Shown: piece after piece, positions 1 through 47,704 of the stretch
Layout: every line of letters starts with the position of its first letter
Numbering within the stretch: position 1 is the first letter of the stretch
Assembly: GCA_000993405.1 (NCBI GenBank)
Contig: LBWB01000005.1
Span: 3,698 to 67,697, forward strand
DNA length: 64,000 nucleotides
Direction of reading: 5' to 3'
Source: Candidatus Woesebacteria bacterium GW2011_GWB1_39_12
Lineage (GTDB): Bacteria > Patescibacteriota > Microgenomatia > UBA8517
Notes under the pieces: model-generated
The model's database searches: none
What the model was told of the DNA's origin: nothing
The model's input: the letters and a program-made list of their open reading frames with translations, nothing else
Program-made: the position numbers and the translations under genes

Positions 1-709
1 CACCATCCATGTTGATAGCGTCTCGGGCATTACAGGTTCGCATCATGTAAGCCAGTTCACGAAGGGTTACTCCCTCGCTATAGCCAGGTTGCCTTCCATC
101 AACCACAATAAGAATTAAGGTGTTGTTGCCTGTTAGGCCAACGCTTGTCCTGGGATGTAAATGTACACAATCTTGGGGTCTAGAAGGATTACAGGTAATA
201 TAATTTTGAGCTACTTCGCCAACTCTAACAATTCCGTTTGAACCGGATATTGCATCCCACAAAGGGTCCCCCCCTCTTCCCCAAAATCTGACTTCATTAG
301 CCTCCGAAATAAAAAAAGATGGTTCAGGAGAAGGATCCGAGTACTGGTCTCCTTGGGATGCGGCCAGCCCCGCTGGATCAGTAAGACTCCAGTGTAGATC
401 TCCATTAATGGCAACATCAGATCCATAAGTTGACAGAAAGGAAGAAGTGGTTCTGCCGAGCCCTTCTCTAGGCGTAACCATCAGGTCTATATTTGGATTA
501 TTTAAATCGATCTTAACAACGTACCAAGTTAGGGTTCTGGGTGAGCTGGCGGTAAATCTTCTGTAGGTTATCCCGTCAGAAATTTGTTGAAAGTCGACAT
601 TGCAGTTAAAATCAGGACCCGTTGATTGGGCTTTTGAGGTTTTGGGAAGGACAAATAGAGCAAAAACAATTAATAATAATGTAAACAACATTTTTTCGGT
701 TAGTTTCAT
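1..709 (-). CDS. Phosphodiester glycosidase family protein; N-terminal part, continues beyond window start
   Basis: Hand translation from the ATG at 709 gives an uninterrupted frame running off position 1. Signal peptide MKLTEKMLFTLLLIVFALFVLPKTSKA, then ...TSVGLTGNNTLILIVVDGRQPGYSEGVTLRELAYMMRTCNARDAINMDG. This is the typical core of the phosphodiester glycosidase (NAGPA-like) domain. It is missing from the ORF track only because it runs off the edge. Confidence 0.65.
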   Translation of the reverse strand, partial: MKLTEKMLFTLLLIVFALFVLPKTSKAQSTGPDFNCNVDFQQISDGITYRRFTASSPRTLTWYVVKIDLNNPNIDLMVTPREGLGRTTSSFLSTYGSDVAINGDLHWSLTDPAGLAASQGDQYSDPSPEPSFFISEANEVRFWGRGGDPLWDAISGSNGIVRVGEVAQNYITCNPSRPQDCVHLHPRTSVGLTGNNTLILIVVDGRQPGYSEGVTLRELAYMMRTCNARDAINMDG

Positions 710-710
710 A

Positions 711-1895
711 TTACCTTTCTAGTTCGTCCGGCACCAAAGTTTGTTGTAACAAATCAGATAGTTCAAACGATTCTTGCATATGGGCGAAAAACAGTTCAGC
801 CGGCCTTTGGTTTGAAAGAAAAACATTGGTTAAATAAAGACCCGGACTGATAATTTGATAAGGCGACGTCTGGGCTTCAACCTCGCCTTTCCGATCCTCA
901 GTAGAGGAAAAAGGAATGTAGGGGAAAAGTCTGCCAAGAGCCTGAGTTAATCTGACTCTTGTTCTTGAGGACGGATAACAAAAACGAGGATCTGTACCGG
1001 ATCCACAACCAACAATCTGGTTGTGTCTTTCAACACCCGCTCTTGATTGTTCAAAAAGCCTGTCGGTTATCTGACTATCCCAGGCAAGAAGTTTTTTTAG
1101 AGGACCCGAATAATCTACAATTTTTCTTATGCCCTCTTCTGTATTCGGATCAGGGGGGTCGTATTCGGCTCTTCCGTTAATACCATTTAAGTACCAGCTT
1201 ATATATTCATTTACTTTGGCGGGATTGTCCAGACTATCTGGCATGATCTCAGGAGGTTGTTCCTGACTGTTAACTACAAGCTCGGTATTCCCCATAATGG
1301 GTAGATATGCTTCCTGCAAGTCGATAGCGATATTTTTTTGTCTGTTTATGCTGAAACGACATGTTTCTCTATAGAAACCGTCTGGGCTGGCTCCGAAATT
1401 TATAGTGCAGTCTGCGCTGATTGGATTTCCTTCGAAGGTAAGGGTTGTGGCGGCTCCGGTCTCATAAAGATGCTCAGCAATAATCTCTAGTCTGTCGTAG
1501 ACCAAAAGATCGTTTCCGCAGAAAAGAGCTATATCAGCAACGTTTTGGTTGCAAGGGCTTGCTTGGTAGGGTCTCAGAGAATGAAATTCTGTCGGGCGGA
1601 CCTGGTTGCAGGGTACATAAGGAGGGGGGATTGGACCCCGGGTTGGAGTAGGTGTATTAGTAACAGTAGGTATTGGGGTATTTGTGGGTCCGTCGTCACC
1701 AGCTGCATGGCAAAAACAGTCTCCTGTCCTTTCATCTACTCCGCAGACTTGATTACTTCTGCAACTATCATCAAAACGATGGCAGGGAGGACTATTGCCT
1801 TCACACTCTTGTGCCTTAATGTTCTTCGTTAATATTAAAAAGTTGAGGGCAAAAATAGATGTAACTAAAAGTGTTTTAACAATCCTTATGGGCAT
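711..1895 (-). CDS. Secreted hypothetical protein: signal peptide, Cys-rich N-terminal module, Pro/Thr-rich linker, ~300-aa C-terminal domain of unknown function
   Basis: ORF 711..1955. The likely start is the internal ATG at 1895 (MPIRIVKTLLVTSIFALNFLILTKNIKAQ reads as a signal peptide). Cys-rich segment ECEGNSPPCHRFDDSCRSNQVCGVDERTGDCFCH, then linker TNTPIPTVTNTPTPTRGPIPPP. Confidence 0.55.
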   Translation of the reverse strand: MPIRIVKTLLVTSIFALNFLILTKNIKAQECEGNSPPCHRFDDSCRSNQVCGVDERTGDCFCHAAGDDGPTNTPIPTVTNTPTPTRGPIPPPYVPCNQVRPTEFHSLRPYQASPCNQNVADIALFCGNDLLVYDRLEIIAEHLYETGAATTLTFEGNPISADCTINFGASPDGFYRETCRFSINRQKNIAIDLQEAYLPIMGNTELVVNSQEQPPEIMPDSLDNPAKVNEYISWYLNGINGRAEYDPPDPNTEEGIRKIVDYSGPLKKLLAWDSQITDRLFEQSRAGVERHNQIVGCGSGTDPRFCYPSSRTRVRLTQALGRLFPYIPFSSTEDRKGEVEAQTSPYQIISPGLYLTNVFLSNQRPAELFFAHMQESFELSDLLQQTLVPDELER

Positions 1896-1941
1896 GATCC
1901 AGTTTAGCATAATTGCTTTTGACGTGGATAGAAGAACGAAC

Positions 1942-2223
1942 TTAGGGTGGAACAATACGAAAGTTGGTGACGTCGGCTCCGGTAAAAACTCCGATGAAGC
2001 GTAGAATTAGGTAGCTTAGGGCAACGAGTGCTATGCCACCTATTGCATAAGTCAATGTTTTTTTAGCAGATTCCAGGCTTTTGGGGTCACCTCCAGAAGT
2101 GATAAATTTGAAGCCTCCCAGTAAAAGCATGATAAAAAGAAGTATTCCGGCTAGACCCAAAAGAGCCGCAATCACTCTTTCAAACATCCCCTCGAAGCTT
2201 TGTAAAGTGGCAGGTTCGCCCAT
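1942..2223 (-). CDS. Pilin-like small membrane protein, TrbC/VirB2-like 'T4SS pilin' family; paralog 1 of 8
   Basis: 93 aa, two TM segments flanking the motif FITSGGDPKSLESAKKTL...AIGGIALV. The motif is shared by all eight tandem paralogs. Confidence 0.6.
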   Translation of the reverse strand: MGEPATLQSFEGMFERVIAALLGLAGILLFIMLLLGGFKFITSGGDPKSLESAKKTLTYAIGGIALVALSYLILRFIGVFTGADVTNFRIVPP

Positions 2224-2337
2224 AAGTTTTTATATACTTACAGTTTAGCGAAGAATTTGTATAAGGGCAATAAGGACTGTTCTTTCATTAAAAAACCCCG
2301 ACAAGCGGGGTTTACTCCAAATTAGTATTACTTTCTA

Positions 2338-2682
2338 TTATGGTGCCTGAGCATTCGGAATATTAAGAGAAAGTATATTGATTCCGAAGAACAAGTTTAC
2401 AAGATTGATTATTGCCCACGCTGCAAAAACTATAACTAGACCGATTAGAGCTGCTGTAATTTGACCTCGTGCTGCTTCTGTTTGTCCTTTGTCTCCACCG
2501 GAGGTGATGTATCTTATTCCTCCCCAAACTAGCATGAAGAAGAAGATAAGGGCTGCAATAACCAGGACAAGAACAATTAAAGCAGAGATAATATTTGCAA
2601 TCGTAATGTCATTGAGTCCTGCAAATTGCCCTCCAGGAGTAATGTTTATTGCTTGAGCGTAGACCGGTGAAAGTAATGTCAT
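2338..2682 (-). CDS. Pilin-like small membrane protein (TrbC/VirB2-like), paralog 2
   Basis: 114 aa. YITSGGDKGQTEAARGQITAALIGLVIV between hydrophobic segments. Confidence 0.6.
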   Translation of the reverse strand: MTLLSPVYAQAINITPGGQFAGLNDITIANIISALIVLVLVIAALIFFFMLVWGGIRYITSGGDKGQTEAARGQITAALIGLVIVFAAWAIINLVNLFFGINILSLNIPNAQAP

Positions 2683-2767
2683 GTTGATGTTTTTATTATG
2701 TGATTATTCAAAATCCTTTGTCAAGTACCAGTTTTGAAATCAAATACTTGTTTAATCAATTTATACT

Positions 2768-3373
2768 TCAGGGATTCCTGCATTCCCAACCAGGATCCCT
2801 GCATGTCAGTGTTCCACACTCACCGCCTACTGAAACCCAGCCTCCTGAAGTACATCTGTAACAACCACCCGCAAAAGTGCGTCTTCCCACACTGTCTGTG
2901 ACTGCATAATATCCAGAACACGAACCGCCACATGGACAAGCGGTGTTACCTCCAGACGGAGCAGATCCGCCATCTCCACCTCCGTCCCCACCCCCACCTT
3001 GTGGACAAATTAGTGTTGACGCAAAGCCTATATCAAACGCCCCGATTCTTACTCGCCTCAGACCTATTCCGAAAAAGCACTCGACCAGGTTAAGAATGGC
3101 GAAAAAGGCAAGAAGTATGATAACTCCGACAAGTGCGCTTGTTATACGGCTCCTTGCTTGCTCCAAGCGCATTTTGTCTCCACCAGAGGTTATCCATTGT
3201 ATTGCACCAACAATTAGTATAAATACGAAAACAATTGCGCCTATTACAAATCCGAGGCCGATTAATGCGGGAATGAGTCTGCCAAGAAATTCAGCACCAC
3301 TGGTAAATCCAAGGTCTATGGCCGGATTTCTGATGTTTTGGGCAAGTAATTGTTGTGAAATTAATGGATTCAT
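2768..3373 (-). CDS. Pilin-like protein with a C-terminal Gly/Cys-rich extracellular extension, paralog 3
   Basis: 201 aa. WITSGGDKMRLEQARSRITSALVGVIILL core, then GGGGDGGGDGG...CPCGGSCSGYY...CYRCTSGG...CGTLTCRDPGWEC. Confidence 0.6.
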   Translation of the reverse strand: MNPLISQQLLAQNIRNPAIDLGFTSGAEFLGRLIPALIGLGFVIGAIVFVFILIVGAIQWITSGGDKMRLEQARSRITSALVGVIILLAFFAILNLVECFFGIGLRRVRIGAFDIGFASTLICPQGGGGDGGGDGGSAPSGGNTACPCGGSCSGYYAVTDSVGRRTFAGGCYRCTSGGWVSVGGECGTLTCRDPGWECRNP

Positions 3374-3393
3374 AACACAAATTATCTAAAAAG

Positions 3394-3873
3394 CTATTGA
3401 CAGATACCAGCGAAACAACCTTCGGCTGGAGAATTACAACAGACATCTCCTACGCCACAACTTCCACCGCTTATTATGCATCCAGGGGGACCAATAGGAC
3501 TTCCACCGGCTCCAAGTCTTATTCTTTGAATCATTTCCCCGATGTCTAAAATATTATTTATTCCCAATAAAGTCGTAATCAGATCCATTATAAACATGGC
3601 TGCTATGACGACGACTAACCCGATGACGCCTGTTGTAATCTTTCTTCTTGCATCCTCAAAAGCCCCCTTGTCTCCGCCGGAACCAATTATGCCTATTGCT
3701 CCTGTTATGAGTATGAACATGAAGTAGATTGCTGCGATTACGGTCATTAGACCAATCGTTGTTGATAGCACGTCGGCTAAAAGCCGGACGGCGTTACTCC
3801 CGATGCCGATATTTCCTATTCCCGTTAAGGGGCCTCCGACAGGGTTTGATCTTTGAGCTAAAAGATTTCTCAT
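3394..3873 (-). CDS. Pilin-like protein with a C-terminal Cys-rich tail, paralog 4
   Basis: 159 aa. IIGSGGDKGAFEDARRKITTGVIGLVVV core. C-terminus GCIISGGSCGVGDVCCNSPAEGCFAGICQ. Confidence 0.6.
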   Translation of the reverse strand: MRNLLAQRSNPVGGPLTGIGNIGIGSNAVRLLADVLSTTIGLMTVIAAIYFMFILITGAIGIIGSGGDKGAFEDARRKITTGVIGLVVVIAAMFIMDLITTLLGINNILDIGEMIQRIRLGAGGSPIGPPGCIISGGSCGVGDVCCNSPAEGCFAGICQ

Positions 3874-4217
3874 TGTGGTGAAAAGAATTGGAGTTGCAAT
3901 ATTGCGTTCGCATCGCCGAAAAGAATTTGTCCTACAATTCCGGCAATAACAAAAGCACCAGCAGCTATGACCAATCCTATTATGCTTTGAGTAATTTTTG
4001 CGGTCGCATCCGCAATTCTTTTGGGATCTCCGCCTGCGGATAAATATGCGTAGCCCGCCATGATCAAATTAAAAACGGTAAATATTCCTGCTCCGACAAT
4101 GAGAGTTCTTAGAATTATGTTTAAAAGTATTTGCAGCCCTGAAATGCTCCCGCTATTGAAGCGACTGAGAAATTGAGGCGGACTGACAGTACCCCATCTA
4201 TTTTGTGCTATATTCAT
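3870..4217 (-). CDS. Pilin-like small membrane protein, paralog 5
   Basis: 115 aa. YLSAGGDPKRIADATAKITQSIIGLVIA. Overlaps the stop of the upstream gene by 4 nt, which suggests an operon. Confidence 0.55.
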   Translation of the reverse strand: MNIAQNRWGTVSPPQFLSRFNSGSISGLQILLNIILRTLIVGAGIFTVFNLIMAGYAYLSAGGDPKRIADATAKITQSIIGLVIAAGAFVIAGIVGQILFGDANAILQLQFFSPQ

Positions 4218-4230
4218 ATTTAGATTTAAT

Positions 4231-4551
4231 CTAACCCAATATAGTTATTCCTAAAGTAGCCTCTATAAATCTGACTATTAAAAATGCCGCTACAACTAGT
4301 ATAAATCCAATTATCCCGGCTGTCATTATCTGCATTGCCTGCTGTTGTTTTTGGGGATTGCCGGCGCCTGTTATCATCTGAAATCCTGCAAAAATAAAAA
4401 GGAAAAGAAGAATTACGCCGGCAACAACTATAGCGTTTGAGGCAATTATTGAGACGAGTTGTCCAAGATCGGTAATTTCGGTAAGAAAACCTCCCCCACC
4501 AAGTCTTCCGAAAAAAACATCTCCTATATTAAAAGCTAAATTTGAGTTCAT
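4231..4551 (-). CDS. Pilin-like small membrane protein, paralog 6
   Basis: 106 aa. MITGAGNPQKQQQAMQIMTAGIIGFILV. Confidence 0.55.
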   Translation of the reverse strand: MNSNLAFNIGDVFFGRLGGGGFLTEITDLGQLVSIIASNAIVVAGVILLFLFIFAGFQMITGAGNPQKQQQAMQIMTAGIIGFILVVAAFLIVRFIEATLGITILG

Positions 4552-4877
4552 GTCGAGCCGAAAATGTTTAAAATAGGATCCAAACTAAAAATCCTGGCTA
4601 TGAGTCTGACCACCCAATAGGCCGTAAACATAATCAAAAAACCGACAACCGCATAAGTAATTTTTTGTTGACCAGATGCAACTGCCTTAGGGTCCCCCTG
4701 AGAGGTAAGTATTTGAAATCCGCCCAAAATTACGTAAATTAAAATTAGAAAACCCGCTATTCCGAAAATATAGGGAATTAGTCGGTAAATTATATGGCCT
4801 ATCGAAAAAGGACTACCACCTCCCGGAGCCAGTTCCGGTAGGGTAACTCTTATTAATTCGCGAAAATCTATTGGCAT
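4548..4877 (-). CDS. Pilin-like small membrane protein, paralog 7
   Basis: 109 aa. ILTSQGDPKAVASGQQKITYAVVGFLIM. Confidence 0.55.
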   Translation of the reverse strand: MPIDFRELIRVTLPELAPGGGSPFSIGHIIYRLIPYIFGIAGFLILIYVILGGFQILTSQGDPKAVASGQQKITYAVVGFLIMFTAYWVVRLIARIFSLDPILNIFGST

Positions 4878-5902
4878 TATTGATTTCCAAATCCCGGAAT
4901 TTGTAGAATTTGGACTCCGATAAATCTTAACAAATAGGCTCCGAAGAGAAGTAAAACTAATCCCATGATGGCCGCAGTCAGTAGTTCCTTGCCGGCCTGA
5001 ACCCTTTGAGGATTCCCGGCTGAGGTAATAATCAAAAAGCCCGCATAAATCATTAAGACGAATGCAATGCCTCCCGCAAGCCCCATTCCCCAGCGAAGAA
5101 GGAAACTAGTAAAACCCTGGGTGTCTTCAACAGGAATACAACCTACTGCAGTACAGATACCCCCGAGGTTAGAATTTGTCGAACCAGTACAAGCGCCAGA
5201 ATCCACGGGATCACAGAAAATTGCTAGATTAGACCCCCCAATTGATGCTTGTGCGGCTTGACAGATTCTGGGTGTTCCTGGGCCGCTTGCGCGACAGTAC
5301 CCGCAGGCACTATCACAGTCTTCGTGTTCAAGACAAGGTTGTCCACAAGCCACACCACCTGGTGGGTTATTATTGACTACACATTGACATTCTAATGGGC
5401 CTCTTCCTCCACCTCTTACATCTTGTACACAAGGACTCCCACAGCCTCCCCTATAAATAAGTTCAGTACAACTCATCCAGTCAGTTGGACACCCAGCGTT
5501 TGTTGGTGGAATGCAGCAATTGCCTACTGTATCGCTTGTAGTTCTGCAGATTGTTGGAGTACCTCCTTCATCTTCGCATAAGGTGCCTGATCCGTAACTT
5601 CTACAATCTCCTCCACTCGGACACGGTTCTGCTGTAAGGATACAAGGATTGTTGACATCTGCTCTACACTCATCAGCATCCTCATCAACATTTCCGCTGT
5701 GAGTTGCGCAGACAGAGTCGTCGACGCCATACCCAGTTCCACAAGTATCGGTGTTTTCATTGGGCTGGCAACGTTGTGAAACCGGTCCTACCGGTACTGG
5801 AACGCAGTCGAATGTTTGGGCAAAGGCTTTTTGTGGTTTTAAAAAGGCAAAAACAAATAATACTAAACTAAAAGCAATAGCTATAGATAAAATCCTTTTC
5901 AT
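4877..5902 (-). CDS. Secreted Cys-rich protein with a C-terminal pilin-like domain, paralog 8
   Basis: ORF 4877..6001. The likely start is the ATG at 5902 (signal peptide MKRILSIAIAFSLVLFVFAFLKPQKAFA). About 230 aa with more than 30 Cys (CVPVPVGPVSQRCQPNEN...CQCVVNNNPPGGVACGQPCLEHEDCDSACGYC). C-terminus IITSAGNPQRVQAGKELLTAAIMGLVLL. Confidence 0.6.
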   Translation of the reverse strand: MKRILSIAIAFSLVLFVFAFLKPQKAFAQTFDCVPVPVGPVSQRCQPNENTDTCGTGYGVDDSVCATHSGNVDEDADECRADVNNPCILTAEPCPSGGDCRSYGSGTLCEDEGGTPTICRTTSDTVGNCCIPPTNAGCPTDWMSCTELIYRGGCGSPCVQDVRGGGRGPLECQCVVNNNPPGGVACGQPCLEHEDCDSACGYCRASGPGTPRICQAAQASIGGSNLAIFCDPVDSGACTGSTNSNLGGICTAVGCIPVEDTQGFTSFLLRWGMGLAGGIAFVLMIYAGFLIITSAGNPQRVQAGKELLTAAIMGLVLLLFGAYLLRFIGVQILQIPGFGNQ

Positions 5903-5974
5903 TAATTTTAGTCTAGCACAAAAACTATTTGTCAAAAAGTCTATGCCGACTTTGCTGGTATAATTAAAAACAAC

Positions 5975-7723
5975 ATGAGTAGAACAAAGAACAAAGAACA
6001 AAGAACAAAGACAACATTCTTTAATTTGTTTTTATATTTTCTCTTTTTGTTATTTTTTTTACTAATCACTAGTCACTATTCACTATTCACTGTCTCCGCC
6101 GAACCCAACTGTGATTCTCCCGGACCCGGGGACATTGACTTTTGTTTACAAAAGATCGAGCAGGAGATAAATGCATTAAAGCCGGCCCAGGAATACAACA
6201 AAAAAGAACTTTCGGATTTGAGGATACAAATTGCTGGTTTAGAAAAGAGAATTGTCGGACTTTCAAACCAACTCGAGGTGACCCAAAAAGATATAGAAAA
6301 AAGAGAGGAAGACCTGGCCTATGCAGAGGAAATTTTTGTCGAAAAAACAAAAAATCATTATAAGTTTTTAAGAATTTATGATCCTCTTTTGCCCTTCCTA
6401 TCCTCAAGCGATGCTTCTTCCGCTTTCAGAGAAATAGCTTTTCGCCAAAAAGCAGCCAAAGAGGATATTAAAACAATGGAAAAGTATGGAGAGGATCTTC
6501 TGGGCCTAAAAAATGACAAGGCAAATCTGGAGAAAAATAAGACAAACCTTTCAACGCTTCGCTCGCAAGTCAGTCAAAGGGCTCAGTTTCTGGCAGGAGA
6601 AGTTGAAAAGACGGAAAAATATTTAGCAACCTTGTCTGCAAAGCAGGAAGAGCTTTTGGCTCTTAAAGCCGGAGGTTTTCAGACTTCTGTCGGAGATACT
6701 CCTCCTACATTGGAACCCTGTTCGGGTCCTCCCGGATCATCTAATTTCTGCGACCCGGGCGTAAGGCCGGCTTTTGCTGCATTTTCTTTCGGAGCCCCCC
6801 ACAGAACCGGAATGAGTCAGTACGGAGCTTTTGGGCGAGCAAAACAAGGTCAGTCGGCAGAAGCCATTTTATCCGCCTATTATCAAGGGGCCGAACTTAA
6901 TAAAGGATATCCGGTTCCGGCTACAATCGGAGTTTCCGGCTACGGAAGAGTCTCTTTTGAAGACAATTATCTTTTGGGAATTTATGAGGTTCCAGAAAGG
7001 TGGGGAAATGAAGGTGGTTTTGAAGCCTTGAAAGCTCAAGCTGTTGCGGCAAGAAGCTATGCATTGGCAGTAACCAATAATGGAGCCGGTACAATCTGCA
7101 CAACCGAAGCTTGTCAGGTTTACAAACCACAATTGAAAAGCGGCAAATGGGCAGAAGCCGTCCGTGCAACGCGTGGTTGGGTAATGATGAAAGGGGGTGT
7201 GCCCGCAACAACTTATTACGCATCAACTTCGGGCGGTTTTACTATTTCGCAGTGGGGCTGGTCCGGCATAAAAGACGCAAAAGATGGCGATTGGCCGAAT
7301 GCCTCTTATGAGAAAATCTCAGCTTCTCCATGGTTTTACAAAGCCTGGTACAGGAATCGTGCGGGGGCTACATGCGGTAGGAGTAACCCATGGTTAAAAA
7401 GCGAAGAACTGGCAGATATCATAAACGCTTGGCAAGTTTTGTATAAAGGAGGAGGCGACGTTTCGCGTGTTTCTCCTCTTGATACAAGCTGTTGGAACGG
7501 AAACCCGTATTCAATGGGCGAACTTGCGGGGGTTGGAGGATATAATTCGGTTTCAAGTGTTTCGGTTACTTATTCAAACTCAGGTTCAACCCAGAGCTTA
7601 AATTTTTCCACGAACAAGGGATCCGTCAGTATGTCCGGTGAGGAATTTAAAAAGGCGTTTAATTTAAGAGCCCCAGGATATATTGGATTAAAAAGTAGTT
7701 TGTTTAATATAGAGAAGCTCTAA
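5975..7723 (+). CDS. SpoIID/LytB-domain protein with an N-terminal TM segment and a coiled-coil region
   Basis: 582 aa. Central coiled coil. C-terminal FEALKAQAVAARSYALAV...TTEACQVY matches the SpoIID/LytB amidase-enhancer domain. The N-terminus is encoded by a gaacaaa x4 heptamer repeat. Confidence 0.7.
   Translation: MSRTKNKEQRTKTTFFNLFLYFLFLLFFLLITSHYSLFTVSAEPNCDSPGPGDIDFCLQKIEQEINALKPAQEYNKKELSDLRIQIAGLEKRIVGLSNQLEVTQKDIEKREEDLAYAEEIFVEKTKNHYKFLRIYDPLLPFLSSSDASSAFREIAFRQKAAKEDIKTMEKYGEDLLGLKNDKANLEKNKTNLSTLRSQVSQRAQFLAGEVEKTEKYLATLSAKQEELLALKAGGFQTSVGDTPPTLEPCSGPPGSSNFCDPGVRPAFAAFSFGAPHRTGMSQYGAFGRAKQGQSAEAILSAYYQGAELNKGYPVPATIGVSGYGRVSFEDNYLLGIYEVPERWGNEGGFEALKAQAVAARSYALAVTNNGAGTICTTEACQVYKPQLKSGKWAEAVRATRGWVMMKGGVPATTYYASTSGGFTISQWGWSGIKDAKDGDWPNASYEKISASPWFYKAWYRNRAGATCGRSNPWLKSEELADIINAWQVLYKGGGDVSRVSPLDTSCWNGNPYSMGELAGVGGYNSVSSVSVTYSNSGSTQSLNFSTNKGSVSMSGEEFKKAFNLRAPGYIGLKSSLFNIEKL
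5982..6093. repeat. Two degenerate heptamer tandem arrays: (gaacaaa)x4 at 5982-6009 and (tcactNt)x4 at 6066-6093
   Basis: Read directly from the sequence. Both lie in the 5' end of the CDS starting at 5975. Confidence 0.8.
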
Positions 7724-7890
7724 AGAGCTGAAATCCTAAGTACTAAATTCGAAATCCTAAACAATATTTAAAAAAATAACCAATTTATATTCATAAATTG
7801 TCAAATTTTCAAATTCTCAAAACGTTAAGGATTTTGTATTTAAGTAATTTGGATTTGTTTAGAGTTTAGAAATTGGGATTTAGTATTTGT

Positions 7891-7916
7891 CAACTCAAAT
7901 GTTATAATTTGAGTTG
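7891..7916 (+). promoter_or_regulatory. Perfect 9-bp inverted repeat (caactcaaa/tttgagttg) flanking a TATAAT box, 2 nt upstream of the ATG of the 7919 gene
   Basis: caactcaaatgttataatttgagttg. TATAAT lies at 7903-7908. The nearby TTGTCA at 7887-7892 gives only a 10-nt spacer, so the -35 assignment is uncertain. Candidate operator/promoter with a very short or leaderless 5' UTR. Confidence 0.35.
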
Positions 7917-7918
7917 AG

Positions 7919-8581
7919 ATGCCTGATGTATTTGTTTCAAAAGAAAAGACAAAATCTTCTAAGCCGAAGTCGATTATTACTAAACCTAAAGGACCTGAAA
8001 GGCATAATCTTCCCGGCCATACTCATAATCCTTTAGCCGCCTTTTGCTACTACCCGGATTATGTGAAGTTTGTCAGCGAAGATCCCGAGGAAAAGGTGGT
8101 TTTACTTTTACGCCGGCATCCGATAACCAACGTAAAATGGATACTTCCCGCATTTCTGATGGTATTAGCACCTTCTTTTTTCCCCGTAATTTTGCCTTAC
8201 GATCTTTTACCAGCAGGTTTTCGGATTATATTCCCACTTGTTTGGTATCTTATAACCTCGGCTTTCATCCTCGAGGAATTTTTGAGCTGGTTTTTCCACG
8301 TTAATATTGTAACCGATGAAAGAATTGTTGAGGTTGATTTTTTTAACCTCGTTTCAAGAGAAATAACCGACGCTAATATAGATCAGATTCAGGATGTTAC
8401 TCCGCGTGTTGTAGGAGCAGTAAGAACATTTTTTAACTTCGGTGATGTGGTGATACAGACGGCAGCCGCGGTTCCCTTGATTAATTTTGAGGCTGTTCCA
8501 AATCCGGACAAAGTAGCCAGAATATTAAGAGAATCACGTATCGAGGAGGAGCAGGAAAAATTGGAAGGAAGGGTTAGATAA
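7919..8581 (+). CDS. YdbS-like bacterial PH domain (bPH_2) membrane protein
   Basis: 220 aa. LLLRRHPITNVKWILPAFLMVLAPSF, two TM helices, then ...VTDERIVEVDFFNL...NFGDVVIQTAAA, which is typical of PF03703-type proteins. Confidence 0.6.
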   Translation: MPDVFVSKEKTKSSKPKSIITKPKGPERHNLPGHTHNPLAAFCYYPDYVKFVSEDPEEKVVLLLRRHPITNVKWILPAFLMVLAPSFFPVILPYDLLPAGFRIIFPLVWYLITSAFILEEFLSWFFHVNIVTDERIVEVDFFNLVSREITDANIDQIQDVTPRVVGAVRTFFNFGDVVIQTAAAVPLINFEAVPNPDKVARILRESRIEEEQEKLEGRVR

Positions 8582-8582
8582 T

Positions 8583-8807
8583 ATGCAAGATTTTGGAAGT
8601 ATTGCACCCTCTATCTTTATTCTTATAAAAATTGCTGTTTGGATTTTTCTTTTTACGTATGTTCTATTTTCCGGAGTTGTCATAAAACAAGTTCGTGTTA
8701 TGACGCAGACTTTGGAAGTAGGCTTTGAAAAACCGATAAAACTCATTGCGCTTGTTCACTTTATTGTCTCTCTCACCGTTTTTATTTTAGCCCTTATTAT
8801 TCTTTAA
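8583..8807 (+). CDS. Small hypothetical membrane protein
   Basis: 74 aa, two predicted TM segments. Start overlaps the stop of the upstream gene. Confidence 0.45.
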   Translation: MQDFGSIAPSIFILIKIAVWIFLFTYVLFSGVVIKQVRVMTQTLEVGFEKPIKLIALVHFIVSLTVFILALIIL

Positions 8808-8825
8808 GATAAAGTGTCTTAGCTT

Positions 8826-8851
8826 ATGAACTGGTTTCAAAACCAGTTCAT
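8826..8851 (+). terminator. Perfect 12-bp inverted repeat (atgaactggttt / aaaccagttcat) downstream of the 8583..8807 gene
   Basis: Seen in sequence. No T-tract follows, so it could be a Rho-independent-like hairpin or a protein-binding palindrome. Confidence 0.35.
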
Positions 8852-8908
8852 ATAACCTAGTGTAAGCTCTCAAAACGAGCCTAGAAGGCGAGTTTTGAAA
8901 CAGGTTCT

Positions 8909-10762
8909 ATGCCTTTTGAGATCATCTCGGCAAAACTTACGGGTAATCCCGACGCAGCAGGTTGGGCTCAAATTTATGAATTCAGTCCAGACGACGAAGA
9001 GAAATATAAGCTTAGAGGGAAACTTTTTGCGGTAATTTCCACTTCAACAAAAGAGGTTGGAATGGATACGGTTCTTGCAGGGAGAGAAGTTTTGTCACGC
9101 CTTCATGAAGAATATTTTGGAGAAACTTCAGGAAGTTCTTTTTCAAGACTGAAAATCTCTGTTGAGAAAGTTATAAACGAATTTTCTTCGTGGGAAGATA
9201 TTCAAATTGCCTGCGTTTCTTATGTTAATAATGTTTTTAACGTGGCTGCCGGTGGTGGGGCGCGGATTGTTGTTTTGAGACAAGGCGACCTGTCAACCAT
9301 TCTTCAAAGTCAATCTGGGGAAGTTCAGATAGCGTCTGGTATTCCCAAAGAAGGTGATTTTGTCATTTTGGCTACTAGTCAATTTTTCAATAGATTTTCA
9401 CAGGGGGTTCTTAAGGGGGCAATTCAAGGAAGAGATCCAAAAGAAGTCGTTGAAGTTCTTGCGCCAATTATTCATTCAGGAGGTTTAACAGGTAGTCTCG
9501 GTGCAAGTTTTTTAAAAGTAGTAACGCTTGCACCAAAATTTGACCAAGCTCCTGCAGGTAATAGAATCGAACCCACAGAAATGTTTTCCCAAGGAGTTAA
9601 AAATATTTCTGGATTATTCAAAGGATTGAAAGCAAGAGCCGTTTATGTTCGAAATGTTGGAGACGAAAAAGTGCCGCCAAAAAAGAGGGTTTTGGCGAGC
9701 ATAGGCGCAGTTCTTCTTATAACTTTAGTCGTTAGCATTTTTTTTGGAATTAGACAAAAAAGAAACAATGATTTACAAAAGGAGTTTGAGGAAAATTTTT
9801 CGGTAGCGGTGCATGAATTAGATGAAGCCGAAACCCTTTATTCTTTGAATCCGGATCGAGCAAGAGATCTTTTTTACGGGGCAAGAGAAAAAGTTTTGGG
9901 TTTATCGAAAGAGAATTTTAAGGAGGAGGAGGTTGCCGAACTTAAAAAAAAGATCGAGGAGGGGGGAAGAAAGATCTTGGGTGAACACACTCAGGAGCCA
10001 TTAACTTTTGTTGATCTTGGGCTCTTAAGTCAGGGATTTGACGGAGATAGTTTAGTCTTTTCTGATGGAAAAGTTTTTGTTTTCGACAAAGAGGGAAAAA
10101 GAATTGTAAGTGTTGAGATTAAATCCAAACGAGCGGAGGTGATTGCCGGAACAAATCTTCTTGGTAAGGCCGAGGCAATTGCCGTCTACTCGGACAGAGT
10201 CTTTACTATTACTCCGGAGGGCATTTTCGAAATTTTTGAAAATAGCAAAAAGGTGATTGAAGCAGAATGGGACGGAGAAATCTTGGCATACTCATATGCA
10301 GGTAACTTTTATGTCCTTGAGAAAAGTGGTTCTGTAATTTGGCGCTACGCCGGCAGCGAAAATGGTTTTTCGGCAAGGCGAAACTGGCTAACAGAAAGCG
10401 TGGTTGTTGATTTGACCGATGCCAAACAAATTGTAATAAATGGTTCGATTTGGGTTTTAAAGGACGATGGCGAGGTTGTTAAACTGACTTTAGGAAATTT
10501 ACAGGCGTTTGGTCTTAAGAATGTTGCTCCCGACGTCGATAAAGCCGACGCAATTTTTGTCAGTGAAGAGACCGAAGATTTTTATGTTTTAGAAAGTGAT
10601 GGCGGCCGAGTCGTTGTTGTAAATAAAGACGGAGAATATAAAGCACAATATCTGTCAGATCAAATAAAGAACGCAAGATCTCTTGTGGTGTCAGAAGAAG
10701 AGAAGAAGTTAATTCTTCTTACCGGAAACAAACTTTTTTCAATTGATCTTGAACATTTATAA
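8909..10762 (+). CDS. Membrane protein: cytoplasmic PP2C-like, possibly degenerate N-terminal domain; single TM; extracellular beta-propeller-like repeats
   Basis: 617 aa. N-terminal NVAAGGGARIVVLRQG and GDFVILATSQFF resemble PP2C motifs, but the catalytic Asp residues are not evident. TM VLASIGAVLLITLVVSIFFGI. C-terminal repeated blades (VFVFDKEGK, FYVLEKSGSVIW, IWVLKDDGEVV, FYVLESDGGRVVVV). Confidence 0.45.
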   Translation: MPFEIISAKLTGNPDAAGWAQIYEFSPDDEEKYKLRGKLFAVISTSTKEVGMDTVLAGREVLSRLHEEYFGETSGSSFSRLKISVEKVINEFSSWEDIQIACVSYVNNVFNVAAGGGARIVVLRQGDLSTILQSQSGEVQIASGIPKEGDFVILATSQFFNRFSQGVLKGAIQGRDPKEVVEVLAPIIHSGGLTGSLGASFLKVVTLAPKFDQAPAGNRIEPTEMFSQGVKNISGLFKGLKARAVYVRNVGDEKVPPKKRVLASIGAVLLITLVVSIFFGIRQKRNNDLQKEFEENFSVAVHELDEAETLYSLNPDRARDLFYGAREKVLGLSKENFKEEEVAELKKKIEEGGRKILGEHTQEPLTFVDLGLLSQGFDGDSLVFSDGKVFVFDKEGKRIVSVEIKSKRAEVIAGTNLLGKAEAIAVYSDRVFTITPEGIFEIFENSKKVIEAEWDGEILAYSYAGNFYVLEKSGSVIWRYAGSENGFSARRNWLTESVVVDLTDAKQIVINGSIWVLKDDGEVVKLTLGNLQAFGLKNVAPDVDKADAIFVSEETEDFYVLESDGGRVVVVNKDGEYKAQYLSDQIKNARSLVVSEEEKKLILLTGNKLFSIDLEHL

Positions 10763-10809
10763 TTTTAGGTTGATTTTATGTCAAACTCCGAGTATAATAC
10801 AGGCTGTTT

Positions 10810-27754: not shown

Positions 27755-28159
27755 CTAGGTCTTGGAGTCTATTTGTCCAAAGTCAAGCGCTATGCAAGGT
27801 TCGTCACCAATTACCCAAGCGTCATGTCCTGATTGAACCTCAAAAGCCTCTCCCGGACCAACAGAGACTTCTTGGCCGTCGGCAGTCCGGGTGCACATTC
27901 GACCTGATATAACATAACCAATATGCGCTTCGGAACTCTTACCGGTCTCCTTCCCTACAAGTTCGGACCATCTCCAACCAGGTAAATATTTCCCTCGACC
28001 AATAAAAACCGAGTCCAGAATTACCACTGTCCGTTCGCTTCCATCCAGAAAAGTCCACGATTTTTCACCGTTATCCAAATTCTTTACAACAATTCCTGTC
28101 ATATTTTGGATTATAACAGGTTGGGGGGAAATTTGAGGCAAAGTTGACGAAGCGCTCAC
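27755..28159 (-). CDS. Cupin-domain protein
   Basis: 134 aa. HIGYVISGRMCTRTADGQEVSVGPGEAFEVQSGHDAWVIGDEPCIALDF fits a cupin beta-barrel. Confidence 0.55.
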   Translation of the reverse strand: MSASSTLPQISPQPVIIQNMTGIVVKNLDNGEKSWTFLDGSERTVVILDSVFIGRGKYLPGWRWSELVGKETGKSSEAHIGYVISGRMCTRTADGQEVSVGPGEAFEVQSGHDAWVIGDEPCIALDFGQIDSKT

Positions 28160-28824
28160 TTGGTCTTGAAAATTTCCTTTTTAAGACTCCTCGCCAGTTT
28201 TAAATAAAAGTTCTCCATATCTTTTCTTTCTAAAGGAACCAGAAGTTTAGGGATATCTTTATAGATAACTGCCTCGGTGAACGATTGTCCGAGTTGTATA
28301 GGATCAATTGGCCAGTCGAATTTTGCTCGAGCTAGGTCAATCAGTTTTCGCAAGGAATAATTTTCTTTCTTCATAATAAAATAGATATCTACGAAATCTC
28401 TTTCTCTTGGTTTAGTTGAAATGGTGTGGATTTTGTTTGCGGCGATGTCTTCTAAGCTATCAACCGCTAAGCCGTGCCATTTTTTACCTTTGTTAATCCT
28501 GGGAAATGGGTAGTAATTAAAATCGACTTTTAATTCATTTGTTAACAATTTCAGCGTATAGGAGTGCAGACCTAGATATCTTCGATGAGTTATTTTTTTG
28601 GCTTTTAGTTTTTTTCCGGCAATCCCGACAAATTTATTAATGCTTGGTAAATGAATCTCTTTTTCGCTGAATAAATCGATGTCTTGTGATTCGCGATGCT
28701 TGAGATAAATTTCTGAAAGAACAGTACCACCTGTCCAGTAGAAGTTTTTTAAAAGATATGGCTCTTTTAGGACAAGTGCCAAAAAGTTTTTTTGATGTTT
28801 TTTGAGGACGGTTTTTTCCTCCAT
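28156..28824 (-). CDS. Nucleotidyltransferase AbiEii/AbiGii-family toxin (type IV TA / abortive infection)
   Basis: 222 aa. FYWTGGTVLSEIYLKHRESQDIDLFSEKEI matches the family's GGTAL...R.SEDIDL signature. Confidence 0.65.
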   Translation of the reverse strand: MEEKTVLKKHQKNFLALVLKEPYLLKNFYWTGGTVLSEIYLKHRESQDIDLFSEKEIHLPSINKFVGIAGKKLKAKKITHRRYLGLHSYTLKLLTNELKVDFNYYPFPRINKGKKWHGLAVDSLEDIAANKIHTISTKPRERDFVDIYFIMKKENYSLRKLIDLARAKFDWPIDPIQLGQSFTEAVIYKDIPKLLVPLERKDMENFYLKLARSLKKEIFKTK

Positions 28825-46117: not shown

Positions 46118-47704
46118 ATGAAAACTGCCATATTCTGCCGAGTAAGCAGTAAAGAACAGGAAGAAACAGGCTACTCCCTGCCAGCGCAGGAGAAATTCTT
46201 ACGAGAGTATGCCGACAAACAAGGCTTAGAAGTCGCCAAGGTCTTCGCCGTTTCAGAGTCTGCAGCAGGCAAGGTCCAAAGGAAGATCTTTATTGAGATG
46301 ATTGCTTATGTCCGCAAGCACGACATCCCCACAATTATTGTAGAAACAACTGACCGTCTAACCAGGAACTTTGCCGATGTTCCCACTATCGACTTATGGA
46401 TTACTGAGAACGAGGATCATCAAGTCCACCTGGCAAAAGAAGGCTGCATTCTCCACAACACCTCCCGCTCCCACGAGTGGTTTATGTGGCGGGTAAAGGT
46501 GGCAACCGCTGAATACTATGTCCGACTCCTCTCGGAAAATGTAAAGAAGGGGCAAAAGGAAAAGATCGCCCAGGGATGGTTACCAACCAAACCGCCTAAT
46601 GGCTATAAAACCATCGGAGATACAGGACACAAAATCCATGTTGTTGACGAAGATACCGCGCCCTTTGTGAGGAAAATGTTTGATCTGTATATTACAGGCA
46701 ATTATTCAATCAAACGGCTCTCCAAAAAGATGTATGCCGAAGGGATGCGATCCCAATTGGGGCATAAACTCCCGCATAGTCGCATTCACACCTTGTTGCG
46801 CGATCCTTTTTATATCGGCAAAATGAGATGGCAAGATAACATTTATGAGGGTAAACAGCAGCCGTTAATCACCGTCGAGCAATTTAATAAAGTCCAGACC
46901 ATGCTTAAAAGCAGAACTACCCCTAAATACCGCAAGCATAACTTCCTCTTCCGAGGTCTGATCAAATGCGCTGGCTGCCACAACTCAATTACTTTTGAAA
47001 CGGCTAAGGGTCATATTTACGGTCACTGCAACCATTATCACGAATGCCCACAAACAACCTGGGTTAAGGAATACGAAGTCGAAGACCAGCTTTTAGAAGG
47101 GTTTGAAACCTTAAAAATCAAAAACAGCCGTATAGTCGGATGGCTGAAGAAGGCACTCAAGGAAAGTCACCAGGACGAGATCGAATACCACAACAACACC
47201 GTAGGCGAACTTGAAACCCGCTACGAGGCGGTTCAGAAGCGGATGGACAAGTTATACGACGACAAGCTAGACGAAAAGATTGCTCCAGAGTTCTACAACA
47301 GGAAATTCAAACAGTATTCAGACGAGAAAGATGAAATAACGGAATCGATAAAGAAACACGCCCAGGCAAGCACAGGCTACATTAACTTAGGGGTGAATAT
47401 CTATGAACTCTCCCAAAGAGCCAAAGAACTATACCTGAAAGCCAAGGCTAAAGGCATGATAGACGAGCAAAGAGCCTTAATCCGATTTATCTTTGCCACC
47501 TTAACGGTTGATGGGGAAAAATTAAGCTACACCTATTCCAAGACCTTCAAAATCCTCTCCGAGGCAGTCGCAGAAACAAATGGTCCGAAAGTGGGAAAAA
47601 TTGACGACTTAGAAAATGGAAAATTCGAACTTACAAAAAAGCCCGACAATTCAACACAAAAGGACGCTTTGTTGCCTCTGCGTCCCATCTGGCTCCTCGG
47701 GTAG
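46118..47704 (+). CDS. Large serine recombinase (resolvase-family catalytic domain, recombinase domain, zinc ribbon)
   Basis: 528 aa. MKTAIFCRVSSKEQ (catalytic Ser). Recombinase-domain core. CAGCHNSITFE...HCNHYHEC zinc ribbon. C-terminal coiled coil. The last 15 nt overlap the 3' end of tRNA-Asn on the opposite strand. Confidence 0.85.
   Translation: MKTAIFCRVSSKEQEETGYSLPAQEKFLREYADKQGLEVAKVFAVSESAAGKVQRKIFIEMIAYVRKHDIPTIIVETTDRLTRNFADVPTIDLWITENEDHQVHLAKEGCILHNTSRSHEWFMWRVKVATAEYYVRLLSENVKKGQKEKIAQGWLPTKPPNGYKTIGDTGHKIHVVDEDTAPFVRKMFDLYITGNYSIKRLSKKMYAEGMRSQLGHKLPHSRIHTLLRDPFYIGKMRWQDNIYEGKQQPLITVEQFNKVQTMLKSRTTPKYRKHNFLFRGLIKCAGCHNSITFETAKGHIYGHCNHYHECPQTTWVKEYEVEDQLLEGFETLKIKNSRIVGWLKKALKESHQDEIEYHNNTVGELETRYEAVQKRMDKLYDDKLDEKIAPEFYNRKFKQYSDEKDEITESIKKHAQASTGYINLGVNIYELSQRAKELYLKAKAKGMIDEQRALIRFIFATLTVDGEKLSYTYSKTFKILSEAVAETNGPKVGKIDDLENGKFELTKKPDNSTQKDALLPLRPIWLLG

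Follow-up and report, generated by a model that had tools for sequence, protein, structure and literature searches.

What is built from the eight consecutive pilin-like genes of Candidatus Woesebacteria GW2011_GWB1_39_12, an ultra-small groundwater bacterium, and why do three of them carry cysteine-rich modules? In the 64 kb stretch of DNA analysed here (the window), all eight consecutive genes, on the minus strand between 1942 and 5902, matched the Pfam family T4SS_pilin (PF18895), in agreement with the original prediction, which had placed them in the TrbC/VirB2-like T4SS pilin family expanded in CPR bacteria. Paralogs were numbered from the lowest-coordinate gene: paralog 1 is operon position 8, and paralog 8 is position 1. 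The coordinates below are those of the open reading frames, except for position 1, whose TTG-started frame is 4877-6001 (minus).

4877-5902, minus strand: position 1 (paralog 8), 341-aa 'GCIP-type' pilin; PF18895, 27.1 bits
5819-5902, minus strand: signal peptide of position 1 (residues 1-28), classical, MKRIL...KAFA/Q
5135-5818, minus strand: Cys-rich ectodomain of position 1 (residues 29-256), 28 Cys
Residues 261-332 of position 1, minus strand: two-helix hairpin
4548-4877, minus strand: position 2 (paralog 7), 109-aa short pilin, overlapping position 1 by 1 nt; 31.6 bits
4231-4551, minus strand: position 3 (paralog 6), 106-aa short pilin, overlapping position 2 by 4 nt; 39.2 bits
3870-4217, minus strand: position 4 (paralog 5), 115-aa short pilin; 26.5 bits
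3394-3873, minus strand: position 5 (paralog 4), 159 aa, hairpin and tail; 18.9 bits, E 0.0017
3397-3549, minus strand: C-terminal extension of position 5, 51 aa, ending in C-x6-C-x5-CC-x6-C-x4-C
2768-3373, minus strand: position 6 (paralog 3), 201 aa, hairpin and tail; 23.0 bits, E 8.5e-5
2771-3061, minus strand: Gly/Cys-rich C-terminal ectodomain of position 6, 97 aa, 9 Cys
2338-2682, minus strand: position 7 (paralog 2), 114-aa short pilin; 47.6 bits, the top score of the array
1942-2223, minus strand: position 8 (paralog 1), 93-aa pilin, the shortest; 39.3 bits

Five of the eight scores exceeded the gathering cut-off of PF18895 (26.6 bits), position 4 was 0.1 bit short of it, and paralogs 3 and 4 fell under it, yet with E values of 0.002 or lower. 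A custom-built family HMM recovered precisely the eight array ORFs from the whole window (79 bits for position 5), with no further match at E ≤ 10. All eight also matched NF045849 (NCBIfam; Mycoplasma ICE pilin-like conjugal transfer protein), at E values from 1.8e-9 (position 3) to 0.076 (≤ 6e-5 in seven), with every score under the model cut-off of 40 bits. Approximately 75 residues of the cores were alignable, at 24-35% identity among the eight. The motif was looser than the [IL]TS[GA]G[DN]P proposed earlier, the strict form of which occurred only in paralogs 1 and 8; variants in the array were ITSGGDK, IGSGGDK, LSAGGDP, ITGAGNP, and LTSQGDP. Overlaps, described before as 4-nt ones in a tightly packed array, were found at three junctions only (1, 4, and 4 nt); the remaining gaps measured 13, 20, 85, and 114 nt.

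Each core consisted of two hydrophobic helices (Kyte-Doolittle hydropathy of 1.7-2.5) on either side of a 14-residue polar loop. Across 28 genomes, at each of the eight positions, the loop contained 2.1-4.1 Lys and Arg per 15 residues, compared with 0.3-1.2 for the flanks. This charge bias agreed with the VirB2-type pilin hairpin predicted originally, and insertion of each subunit into the membrane, with both ends outside and the short basic loop on the cytoplasmic side, is well supported. Cys-rich domains led by a signal peptide preceded helix 1, and Cys-rich tails followed helix 2; since the charge bias places both termini outside, all three Cys-rich modules are extracellular.

The most likely start of paralog 8 is the ATG at 5902, because databases hold the 341-aa form (UT24_C0005G0012, 341 aa, 100%) and a classical signal peptide results. 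The earlier count of more than 30 Cys was too high: 28 were found in this form and 30 in the TTG-started 374-aa ORF. The first array gene always encoded a signal peptide, then an ectodomain, and then the hairpin, and 91 homolog clusters combined a signal peptide and variable Cys-rich domain with a conserved core, C..TAIGCIP..GIAGGIA..TSAGNPQRLQAGKELLTAA. The hairpin of the AlphaFold model had pLDDT values above 90. When the disulfide pattern was compared with 12 homologs, as had been proposed, 13-22 of the 28 Cys columns were kept, at a non-Cys identity of 17-31%. The N-domain shared 25-32% identity with its closest relative, versus 84-87% for the core and 88% for the neighbouring SpoIID protein. 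A disulfide-scaffolded, fast-evolving ectodomain and entry of this subunit via Sec are well supported. Because the Cys scaffold is conserved while other residues diverge, the N-domain changes faster than the core, and other lineages have PKD domains joined to the same hairpin, the ectodomains look like binding modules.

That subunits 5 and 6 of this genome bear smaller C-terminal Cys-rich ectodomains is also well supported. Both had been described as large; both were present, but the Cys-rich part of position 5 was small (~30 aa with 6 Cys, within the 51-aa extension). No Pfam family matched this tail, none of the fetched loci held a related one, and the closest relative (L005) lacked it, having a tail of 13 aa there. 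Its six Cys are spaced like those of knottin (inhibitor-cystine-knot) mini-proteins, and a position-6 homolog (P0114) bears two units of the same pattern; however, no family match was significant (Toxin_12 at E 0.056 in P0114 only, and none in the window protein). Position 6 had one further Cys at the end of TM2, and its Cys pair C99 and C123 was nearly invariant. Its tail was in frame, at 73-74% identity, in the diverged ortholog of L005, and 38 of 119 homolog clusters had a tail of at least 30 aa, with at least 4 Cys in 30 of these 38. Residues ~140-201 of the predicted model formed a small beta domain (pLDDT of 74-94 per 10-residue block). Cys-rich tails were gained and lost between close relatives. 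The adhesin-fold comparison suggested originally was carried out, and the Cys-rich modules matched no Pfam family, known adhesin, or solved fold.

The proposal of one operon proved too simple, as paralog 2 is bracketed by two putative signals:

2695-2724, minus strand: sigma-70-like promoter match, TTGACA-18-CATAAT (11/12), in the 85-nt gap upstream of position 7
2290-2310, minus strand: intrinsic-terminator-like hairpin, CCCCG-cttgt-CGGGG then U6, in the 114-nt gap after position 7

The promoter-like site, a consensus match only, was the best within 1-8000, where the total count of such matches was not above that in shuffles. The terminator-like hairpin folded at -11.3 kcal/mol with a weak z of only -0.84. 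Five related loci, all within the window's own clade (5 of 28 loci), likewise had a hairpin with a T-run at this junction, with differing stem sequences; the other array junctions together yielded a single comparable hairpin. The position-7 junction was the only one with a gap in every locus. Because of its own promoter-like site and positionally conserved terminator, position 7 is a candidate for the major or most highly expressed subunit.

Eight orthogroups occurred in a fixed order in the 28 Microgenomatia loci, in which eight was the modal array size. In 98.6% of comparisons, the best cross-genome match kept its place in the array (756/756 at both positions 4 and 8), a position-specific ortholog of position 2 was present in 28 loci, and identity was 61% at the same position versus 32% between positions. 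Per-position identity between genomes was 50-76%, with position 7 the most conserved (75.5%). Since best matches keep their array position and same-position identity exceeds that between positions, the eight genes are old, distinct, position-specific orthogroups and not recent paralogs, so that the lineage-specific expansion implied by that word does not hold. Natural single polypeptides with 8, 7, and 3 hairpins exist, those with 7-8 being reproducible in three contigs, which suggests that the subunits act together.

The flanking genes agreed with the secreted Cys-rich protein, phosphodiester glycosidase, and SpoIID protein named originally:

1-709, minus strand: start only of a NAGPA phosphodiester-glycosidase gene; the window edge cuts a 714-aa secreted protein
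711-1895, minus strand: secreted protein, 394 aa, 13 Cys; no Pfam match
5975-7723, plus strand: divergently oriented gene for a SpoIID-domain cell-wall protein, 582 aa, signal anchor; SpoIID PF08486, E 4.7e-14

In related genomes, a conserved protein of 700-940 aa is encoded directly after the array, and the 711-1895 product corresponds to its N-terminal part: residues 88-393 of the product aligned to the N-half of a single ORF, which was present in 26 of 27 other eight-gene loci and nearly always began 0-39 bp beyond the array. The 714-aa protein comprises, in order, a signal peptide, a NAGPA domain, and the C-terminal part of this array-following protein, the end of which is lysozyme-like. 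NAGPA (PF09992) was matched at E 1.8e-18 by the 1-709 ORF and at E 5.3e-30 by the full-length protein in L001, which reached 24.9 bits for SLT_3 (PF18896; cut-off of 27 not reached); four of 24 orthologs matched SLT_3, the strongest at E 1.5e-10. Of 27 other eight-gene loci, 26 had the SpoIID gene beside the array. A polytopic membrane protein (at least 6 TM helices), without detectable homology to anything, is encoded 2.5 kb downstream, and the SpoIID, lysozyme-like, and polytopic proteins were syntenic in 21-26 of the 27 loci. No VirB4, VirB11, VirD4, or type IV pilus ATPase was found among the larger ORFs of the window, as noted before, or VirB4 within 10 kb of the array in the eight-gene Woesebacteria loci examined. 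Assembly machinery elsewhere in the genome, as had been supposed, agrees with the listing of VirB4 for assembly GCA_000993405.1 (Table S1, PMC12102498). In L084, a GCIP-led array had a VirB4-like ATPase 2 kb away, a coupling-protein-like gene abutted the array in L038, and pilins near virB4 are known in 1135 assemblies (PMC12102498, PMC10633639).

The array itself is not new, because 'VirB2-like pilin arrays' of 2-11 tandem genes in Patescibacteria were published by Quinonero-Coronel et al. in 2025 (441 arrays, mostly in Microgenomatia and Saccharimonadia; PMC12102498); in Southlakia epibionticum, one such array had been shown to be essential (Wang et al. 2023, PMC10633639). PF18895, the tandem arrangement, and low within-array identity (about 25%) are common to both, Microgenomatia are named as array-rich, and the source assembly is in that dataset with VirB4. 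On the other hand, variable sets of 2-11 with antigenic or host-range versatility were proposed there, whereas the present array is a fixed set of eight position-specific orthogroups far from virB4, led by a signal-peptide-bearing subunit with a Cys-rich ectodomain and flanked by cell-wall enzymes. The fixed order, position-1 architecture, position-7 promoter-like site and terminator, distance from virB4, and flanking enzymes were not mentioned in the literature searched, nor were Cys-rich pilin fusions, which had been said to lie outside the standard description.

VirB2, TrbC, and TraA (PF04956 and relatives) are also small two-helix hairpins with a basic cytoplasmic loop and termini outside. 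The termini of F-pilin lie on the pilus exterior, so that terminal fusions would show on the surface. However, the window proteins had no detectable sequence similarity to this group, the seven short subunits lack a long cleaved leader, the fused forms cannot undergo the head-to-tail cyclisation known from TrbC and VirB2, and eight different subunits, in a single-membrane organism, stand against one. The Mbov_0395 family (NF045849) also occurs in wall-less or single-membrane bacteria with a Gram-positive/Tenericutes-class T4SS, and all eight window proteins aligned over nearly its whole 80-residue model, albeit under the 40-bit cut-off. The Mycoplasma ICE pilin-like protein is encoded by a single short gene and is not known to carry ectodomain fusions. 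The minor pilins of type IV pili and type II secretion offer an analogy (several low-copy subunits encoded with a major one, and adhesive or variable parts on tip subunits), but differ in fold and machine, without homology; no class III (prepilin peptidase) signal sequence was present in the eight proteins.

An artefact, namely chance hydrophobic frames or Cys-rich fusions created by frameshift or misassembly, is scarcely credible. The position-5 tail without an ortholog among the fetched loci would fit it, and other assemblies, in which gene lengths were the same, are weak independent checks because they come from the same population (99.98-100% identical). Nevertheless, eight independent Pfam matches, orthologs in 80 loci from many genomes, the in-frame position-6 tail in L005 and dozens of clusters, and the position-1 architecture of 91 clusters ruled it out for seven of the eight genes, the exception being position 5 (its tail), and the Cys segments are regarded as true fusions. 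A pool of major pilins that can replace one another, maintained for variation in antigens or host range by analogy with the VirB2 paralogs of Bartonella and Anaplasma, may appear attractive: this was suggested for Patescibacteria arrays (PMC12102498), within-array identity is low, the position-1 ectodomain is hypervariable, and the tails come and go. It is nonetheless improbable in view of an old orthogroup at each position and fixed array size and order. The array shows no sign that genes were recently duplicated, underwent gene conversion, or changed in copy number, and only the added ectodomains vary, not the hairpins.

A less unlikely, but still doubtful, alternative is a membrane complex of fixed stoichiometry (a ring or short wall-spanning conduit, with one copy each or fixed ratios) without an extended pilus, built with the polytopic protein and cell-wall hydrolases, displaying the Cys-rich domains from a membrane anchor, and for which VirB4 may be dispensable. 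The strict order of eight conserved orthogroups, translational coupling of positions 1-6 (overlaps or few-nt gaps) as in multi-subunit complexes, the 7-8-hairpin polypeptides, VirB4 absent within 10 kb while the cell-wall and polytopic proteins are syntenic, and the lack of any link in fold or sequence to the VirB2 that forms filaments all favour it. However, L084 and many other Patescibacteria (PMC12102498) carry the family in physical linkage with virB4, an assembly role of the polytopic neighbour is a guess because it has no detectable homology, and the seemingly separate and stronger expression of position 7, judged from its sequence signals, would better suit a shaft subunit than an equimolar complex.

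The reading we prefer, to which we give an even chance, is that this locus represents the form that the T4SS 'VirB2-like pilin array' of Patescibacteria takes in Woesebacteria/Microgenomatia, and that it encodes a multi-subunit T4SS pilus or conduit with variable adhesin heads. A T4SS pilus has been reported for no Patescibacterium in the literature searched, 'pilin' being a family name, and a 230-aa head or eight covalently linked hairpins would be hard to fit into the canonical five-start VirB2 lattice. In the proposed T4SS structure, a VirB4-type system encoded elsewhere in the genome would extract the hairpins from the membrane for assembly into one multi-subunit, wall-crossing filament or tube, with subunit 7 as the abundant shaft subunit and the translationally coupled subunits 1-6 as low-copy 'minor pilins', while SpoIID and the NAGPA/lysozyme-like protein would open peptidoglycan for it. 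Tip, adhesin, or host-attachment roles of the Cys-rich modules are plausible. The three fast-evolving, disulfide-rich outer domains probably face the host, and the exposed heads of the minor pilins may determine host specificity by binding to the surface of host cells.

Eight ORFs followed one another on the minus strand at 1942-6001, and all of them matched the Pfam family PF18895 (T4SS_pilin; gathering score of 26.6 bits): five scored over the cut-off (27.1-47.6 bits), one was 0.1 bit short (26.5 bits), and two proteins with C-terminal extensions were under it (23.0 and 18.9 bits; E values of 8.5e-5 and 1.7e-3, respectively). An HMM built from the clade gave 70-92 bits for all eight proteins and, when run over the whole 64 kb window, recovered exactly these ORFs and no further family member. 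The core alignment spanned ~75 residues, with 24-35% identity among the eight. The original prediction of eight tandem pilin-like paralogs was therefore borne out with small corrections, and their identification as T4SS-type pilins of CPR bacteria was supported by PF18895. Paralog 8, counted last in that prediction, leads the operon (position 1; paralog 1 is accordingly position 8), and is identical to UT24_C0005G0012 of Candidatus Woesebacteria bacterium GW2011_GWB1_39_12, a 341-aa 'hypothetical protein' in databases; with the ATG at 5902 as its start codon, the protein has 28 Cys and a classical signal peptide.

All eight proteins also aligned over the full length with NCBIfam NF045849, the 'pilin-like conjugal transfer protein' of Mycoplasma ICE (E values of 1.8e-9 to 0.076, all below its cut-off), which links them to T4SS by sequence, independently of the Pfam name. 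The T4SS class of Gram-positive bacteria and Tenericutes was stated to lack VirB2-like pilins (PMC12102498); given the alignment with NF045849, this statement may need revisiting. Sequence searches spoke against membership in the classical VirB2/TrbC/TraA family: none of the eight matched PF04956 (TrbC) at E <= 1, and a profile of 32 pilin cores found no pilin in PDB, a simple helical hairpin such as that of the solved conjugative pilins being beyond the discriminating power of fold searches. The PDB matches of this profile were designed helical proteins only, sharing a 'GDPK..A' turn, and were rejected as chance matches. A 'faint' precomputed TrbC match was found on P0250 only, an unrelated 8-hairpin protein. 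The class III signal of type IV pilins (prepilin-peptidase site G|F/M-T-L-I/L-E) was absent from all eight N-termini, and whereas type IV pilins and T2SS pseudopilins have a single hydrophobic helix, all eight proteins have two. Several short pilins among paralogs 2-4 (2338-3873) begin with a conserved '..(L/Y)AQ..', resembling the end of a signal peptide, with neither a hydrophobic region ahead of it nor upstream room for one. A holin-like reading (small two-helix proteins beside wall hydrolases) was dropped because of the eight conserved genes, the housekeeping chromosomal context with no phage genes nearby, and the links to conjugation-protein families.

Both helices had a hydropathy of 1.7-2.5, and structure models predicted helical hairpins at high confidence. 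The content of Lys and Arg was 2.1-4.1 per 15 aa in the inter-helix loop vs 0.3-1.2 in the flanks (8 positions in 28 genomes). Since the loop is rich in Lys and Arg, the positive-inside rule places it in the cytoplasm and both termini outside, the same topology as that of VirB2/TraA, and the modules attached to these termini should thus be extracellular and disulfide-bonded; this assignment was well supported, and the fusion architecture agreed with it.

At position 1, a signal peptide and an ectodomain always preceded helix 1, and a conserved motif (C...TAIGCIP) was located just outside the membrane. The ectodomain ranged from ~30 to >400 residues in 91 homolog clusters and in the 150 best of 378 strong matches from a library of 1.8 billion proteins, usually with an even number of Cys (up to 42). 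Alignment of the window's position 1 with 12 homologs showed Cys at 13-22 of its 28 Cys columns (a figure somewhat inflated because aligners favor Cys-Cys columns), with 17-31% identity at other residues. Compared with L005, the locus of the closest relative, the ectodomain was 25-32% identical, vs 84-87% for the hairpin and 88% for the adjoining SpoIID. The ectodomain thus appears to be a conserved disulfide scaffold with fast-changing surfaces, and the fast evolution of this head was well supported.

Position 6 (paralog 3) carried a Gly/Cys-rich tail of 97 residues, 73-74% identical in L005, for which a small β-domain was predicted by a structure model with good confidence. About a third of the position-6 homolog clusters were tailed, most tails being Cys-rich and of several types, and the linker was bracketed by a nearly invariant Cys pair. 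One homolog of the position-6 gene (2768-3373), P0162, has a C-terminal Gly linker followed by a HINT/intein-like domain (PT-HINT; E value of 2.4e-9, over the cut-off), which hints at possible self-processing or C-terminal ligation of a pilin. The tail of position 5 (paralog 4) ended in six Cys (C-x6-C-x5-CC-x6-C-x4-C), and appears to be a recent gain because it was missing from L005. Its Cys spacing (C-C-CC-C-C) is that of knottins, which are defined by a connectivity of I-IV, II-V, and III-VI, and suggests a putative knottin; the tail had no Pfam match. The isolated Cys-rich modules matched neither Pfam nor a solved fold, and when they were searched in the other proteins of 85 loci, as a test for module shuffling, only orthologous pilins were matched. 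The Cys-rich segments proved to be true fusions, as had been claimed, and not artefacts of frameshift or assembly: the gene lengths were the same in other assemblies (99.98-100% identical, and thus of the same population, which comes from the Rifle aquifer), and diverged orthologs kept the frame.

Scanning one genome per species with the conserved core of the first gene yielded 80 loci, which, by record title, belonged to Microgenomatia and related Patescibacteria (Woese-, Shapiro-, Gottesman-, and Levybacteria). Many MAG records (including L005, L006, L008, and L010) bore the title 'uncultured Gammaproteobacteria' or 'Pseudomonadales', and a single one was named 'Methanoperedens'; these titles look wrong, since the records carry typical Woesebacteria/Microgenomatia loci. 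When ORFs were called in the 80 loci and searched with the family HMM, array size was bimodal: eight genes in 28 loci (including the window) and two in 29 loci, many of the latter being contig-end cuts or split arrays. The genes between the split arrays (L055, L067, and L079) were considered as T4SS parts and rejected, being UPP synthase and mevalonate-pathway genes. Among the eight-gene arrays, in 98.6% of 6,048 comparisons the best match of a gene in another genome occupied the corresponding position of the array, and identity was 61% between genomes at the same position vs 32% between positions within one genome. Because of these same-position matches and identities, the array consists of eight old orthogroups in a conserved order, and is neither a recent expansion nor an apparent set of interchangeable variants.

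The library search also revealed single polypeptides with eight (P0250; 820 aa) and seven hairpins (P0218; 606 aa), and a position-1-type protein joined to two further hairpins, three in all (P0249). The 820-aa gene with eight hairpins was present in three independent contigs (L085:9925-16481, L086, and L087), followed on the 3' side by a pilin, a pilin-PKD fusion, and a 718-aa PKD-repeat protein. These natural multi-hairpin fusions argue that several hairpins would work side by side in one assembly, and the PKD fusion indicates that putative adhesion-type ectodomains are attached to the same hairpin in other lineages too.

Positions 1-6 were tightly spaced: neighboring genes either overlapped by 1 or 4 nt or were separated by 13-20 nt. 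Upstream of position 7, a gap of 85 nt contained the best-scoring sigma-70-like site in the region (11 of 12), and the 114-nt gap on its 3' side contained a GC hairpin followed by U6 (with a weak folding z-score). This hairpin was found by sequence reading and a custom scan; a standard terminator scan passed over it, presumably because the stem extended into the T-run. A hairpin with a T-run, differing in stem sequence, was present at the position-7/8 junction in five related loci, whereas all other junctions together yielded only a single comparable hairpin. Over the 28 loci, the junction after position 7 was the only one always gapped (median of 50 nt, minimum of 20 nt), vs medians of -4 to 12 nt for the others, and position 7 was the most conserved subunit (75.5%). 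We infer from these signals that position 7 may be expressed separately and more strongly, as a candidate shaft subunit.

The neighbors of the array were also conserved. A divergent SpoIID gene was kept in 26 of the 27 related loci, and a large secreted protein was encoded on the 3' side of the array in the same number, nearly always directly (0-39 bp). This array-following protein, a single polypeptide of 700-940 aa in 26 of 27 related loci, is split in two here (window 1-1895, minus strand; L001:14008-17338, L001 being the locus of this genome including the sequence left of the window): a 394-aa gene corresponds to the N-terminal part, and the next gene comprises a new signal peptide and NAGPA domain (residues 1-270) and the ancestral C-terminal part (residues 271-711), which looks like a gene broken by a putative domain insertion. 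The ancestral C-terminal part ends in a weak lysozyme-like match (PF18896, SLT_3; 24.9 bits vs a cut-off of 27); SLT_3 matches were found in 4 of 24 orthologs (best E value of 1.5e-10), and a PDB profile search with this protein gave no match.

In 21 of the 27 loci, a gene ~2.5 kb downstream of the array encoded a 557-aa protein, which combined a signal peptide and a ~200-aa ectodomain with at least six hydrophobic helices:

L001:17945-19618, 557-aa polytopic protein, just past the left edge of the window

By its architecture, this protein is a candidate diverged VirB6, a component 'missing' from Microgenomatia; Pfam, NCBIfam, and PDB profile searches gave no match to VirB6/TrbL or to anything else. 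A 74-aa ORF directly on its 3' side (L001:19629-19853) repeats its C-terminal 47 residues at 79% identity, and is a small tandem duplication or gene remnant. In 23-24 of 27 loci, synteny with SpoIID and the array extended to two proteins without Pfam matches, a 220-aa two-helix protein and a 617-aa single-pass protein (window 7919-10762, plus strand), which may be co-regulated via a shared divergent promoter region.

VirB4, VirB11, VirD4, and the type IV pilus ATPase were absent among the larger ORFs of the 64 kb window, the remainder of which is ordinary CPR chromosome (SmpB, DnaG, sigma-70, LytR, glycolysis, and a split transketolase), and no VirB4 was found within 10 kb of the array in the eight-gene loci examined. 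Genes for an AbiEii-family toxin (28156-28824) and a large serine recombinase (46118-47704) in the window had no evident tie to the pilin locus. The expectation that the assembly machinery lies elsewhere was supported: the source assembly (GCA_000993405.1) is listed with 'Presence of VirB4: Yes' (Table S1 of PMC12102498). The Levybacteria locus L084 encoded a VirB4-like ATPase (8899-10803; P-loop_TraG, E value of 5.4e-28) at a distance of 2 kb from its four-gene array, the first gene of which encoded a 647-aa pilin of the position-1 (GCIP) type, and in a Woesebacteria locus (L038), a coupling-protein-like gene (3675-5813; TrwB_AAD_bind and TraG-D_C) was found between SpoIID and the eight-gene array.

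The tandem array as such is already known because a 2025 survey of 3,035 Patescibacteria genomes using the same Pfam model reported 441 'VirB2 arrays' in 383 assemblies, especially of Microgenomatia and Saccharimonadia, with 2-11 pilin genes and a mean within-array identity of 25%; a pilin gene was near virB4 in 1135 of 1948 assemblies (PMC12102498). In Southlakia epibionticum, a six-gene array within the T4SS cluster is essential (PMC10633639; review PMC12857230). Filament formation by the PF18895 family is treated in reviews as a possibility (PMC12857230). Fusions of these pilins to Cys-rich or other ectodomains were not mentioned in the texts searched. What is new here is the fixed architecture of eight orthogroups, the ectodomain fusions and the way they evolve, the expression signals flanking position 7, and the conservation of the neighbors.

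We propose that a distant VirB4 system would assemble the hairpins into a multi-subunit filament or tube, in which position 7 may be the major subunit and positions 1-6 minor subunits whose heads bind the host, while SpoIID and the NAGPA/lysozyme-like protein would open the cell wall. The main rival is a membrane or wall-spanning complex of fixed stoichiometry rather than a long pilus, and the gene order, translational coupling, and multi-hairpin fusions fit it equally well. The authors of the survey suggested, by analogy with Bartonella and Anaplasma, that arrays serve in adapting to different hosts (PMC12102498); this idea of antigenic variation is compatible with the appended heads and incompatible with the hairpins.

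Taken to its furthest extent, the filament or tube would be a T4SS surface organelle of Microgenomatia unlike any described: an obligate assembly of eight VirB2-like subunits with fixed, non-interchangeable places, sometimes made as one 16-helix polypeptide, in which the hypervariable disulfide-scaffold heads of the leading (and sometimes other) subunits mediate host recognition by an episymbiont, and the conserved neighbors supply the missing, highly diverged VirB1- and VirB6-like parts. We consider this full proposal rather unlikely.

The T4SS with its pilin array is essential in the sole genetically tractable Patescibacterium, and the literature calls its function completely unknown (PMC11665869, PMC12857230). 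A fixed assembly of eight parts, as opposed to a collection of alternative pilins, would change how the structure and stoichiometry of the array are to be sought. The natural multi-hairpin fusions are ready-made constructs for structural work. The lysozyme-like and polytopic neighbors are candidates for T4SS components not recovered from Microgenomatia in the published survey, and the fast-evolving, disulfide-scaffolded ectodomains on defined subunits are concrete candidates for determinants of host specificity in uncultured Woesebacteria.
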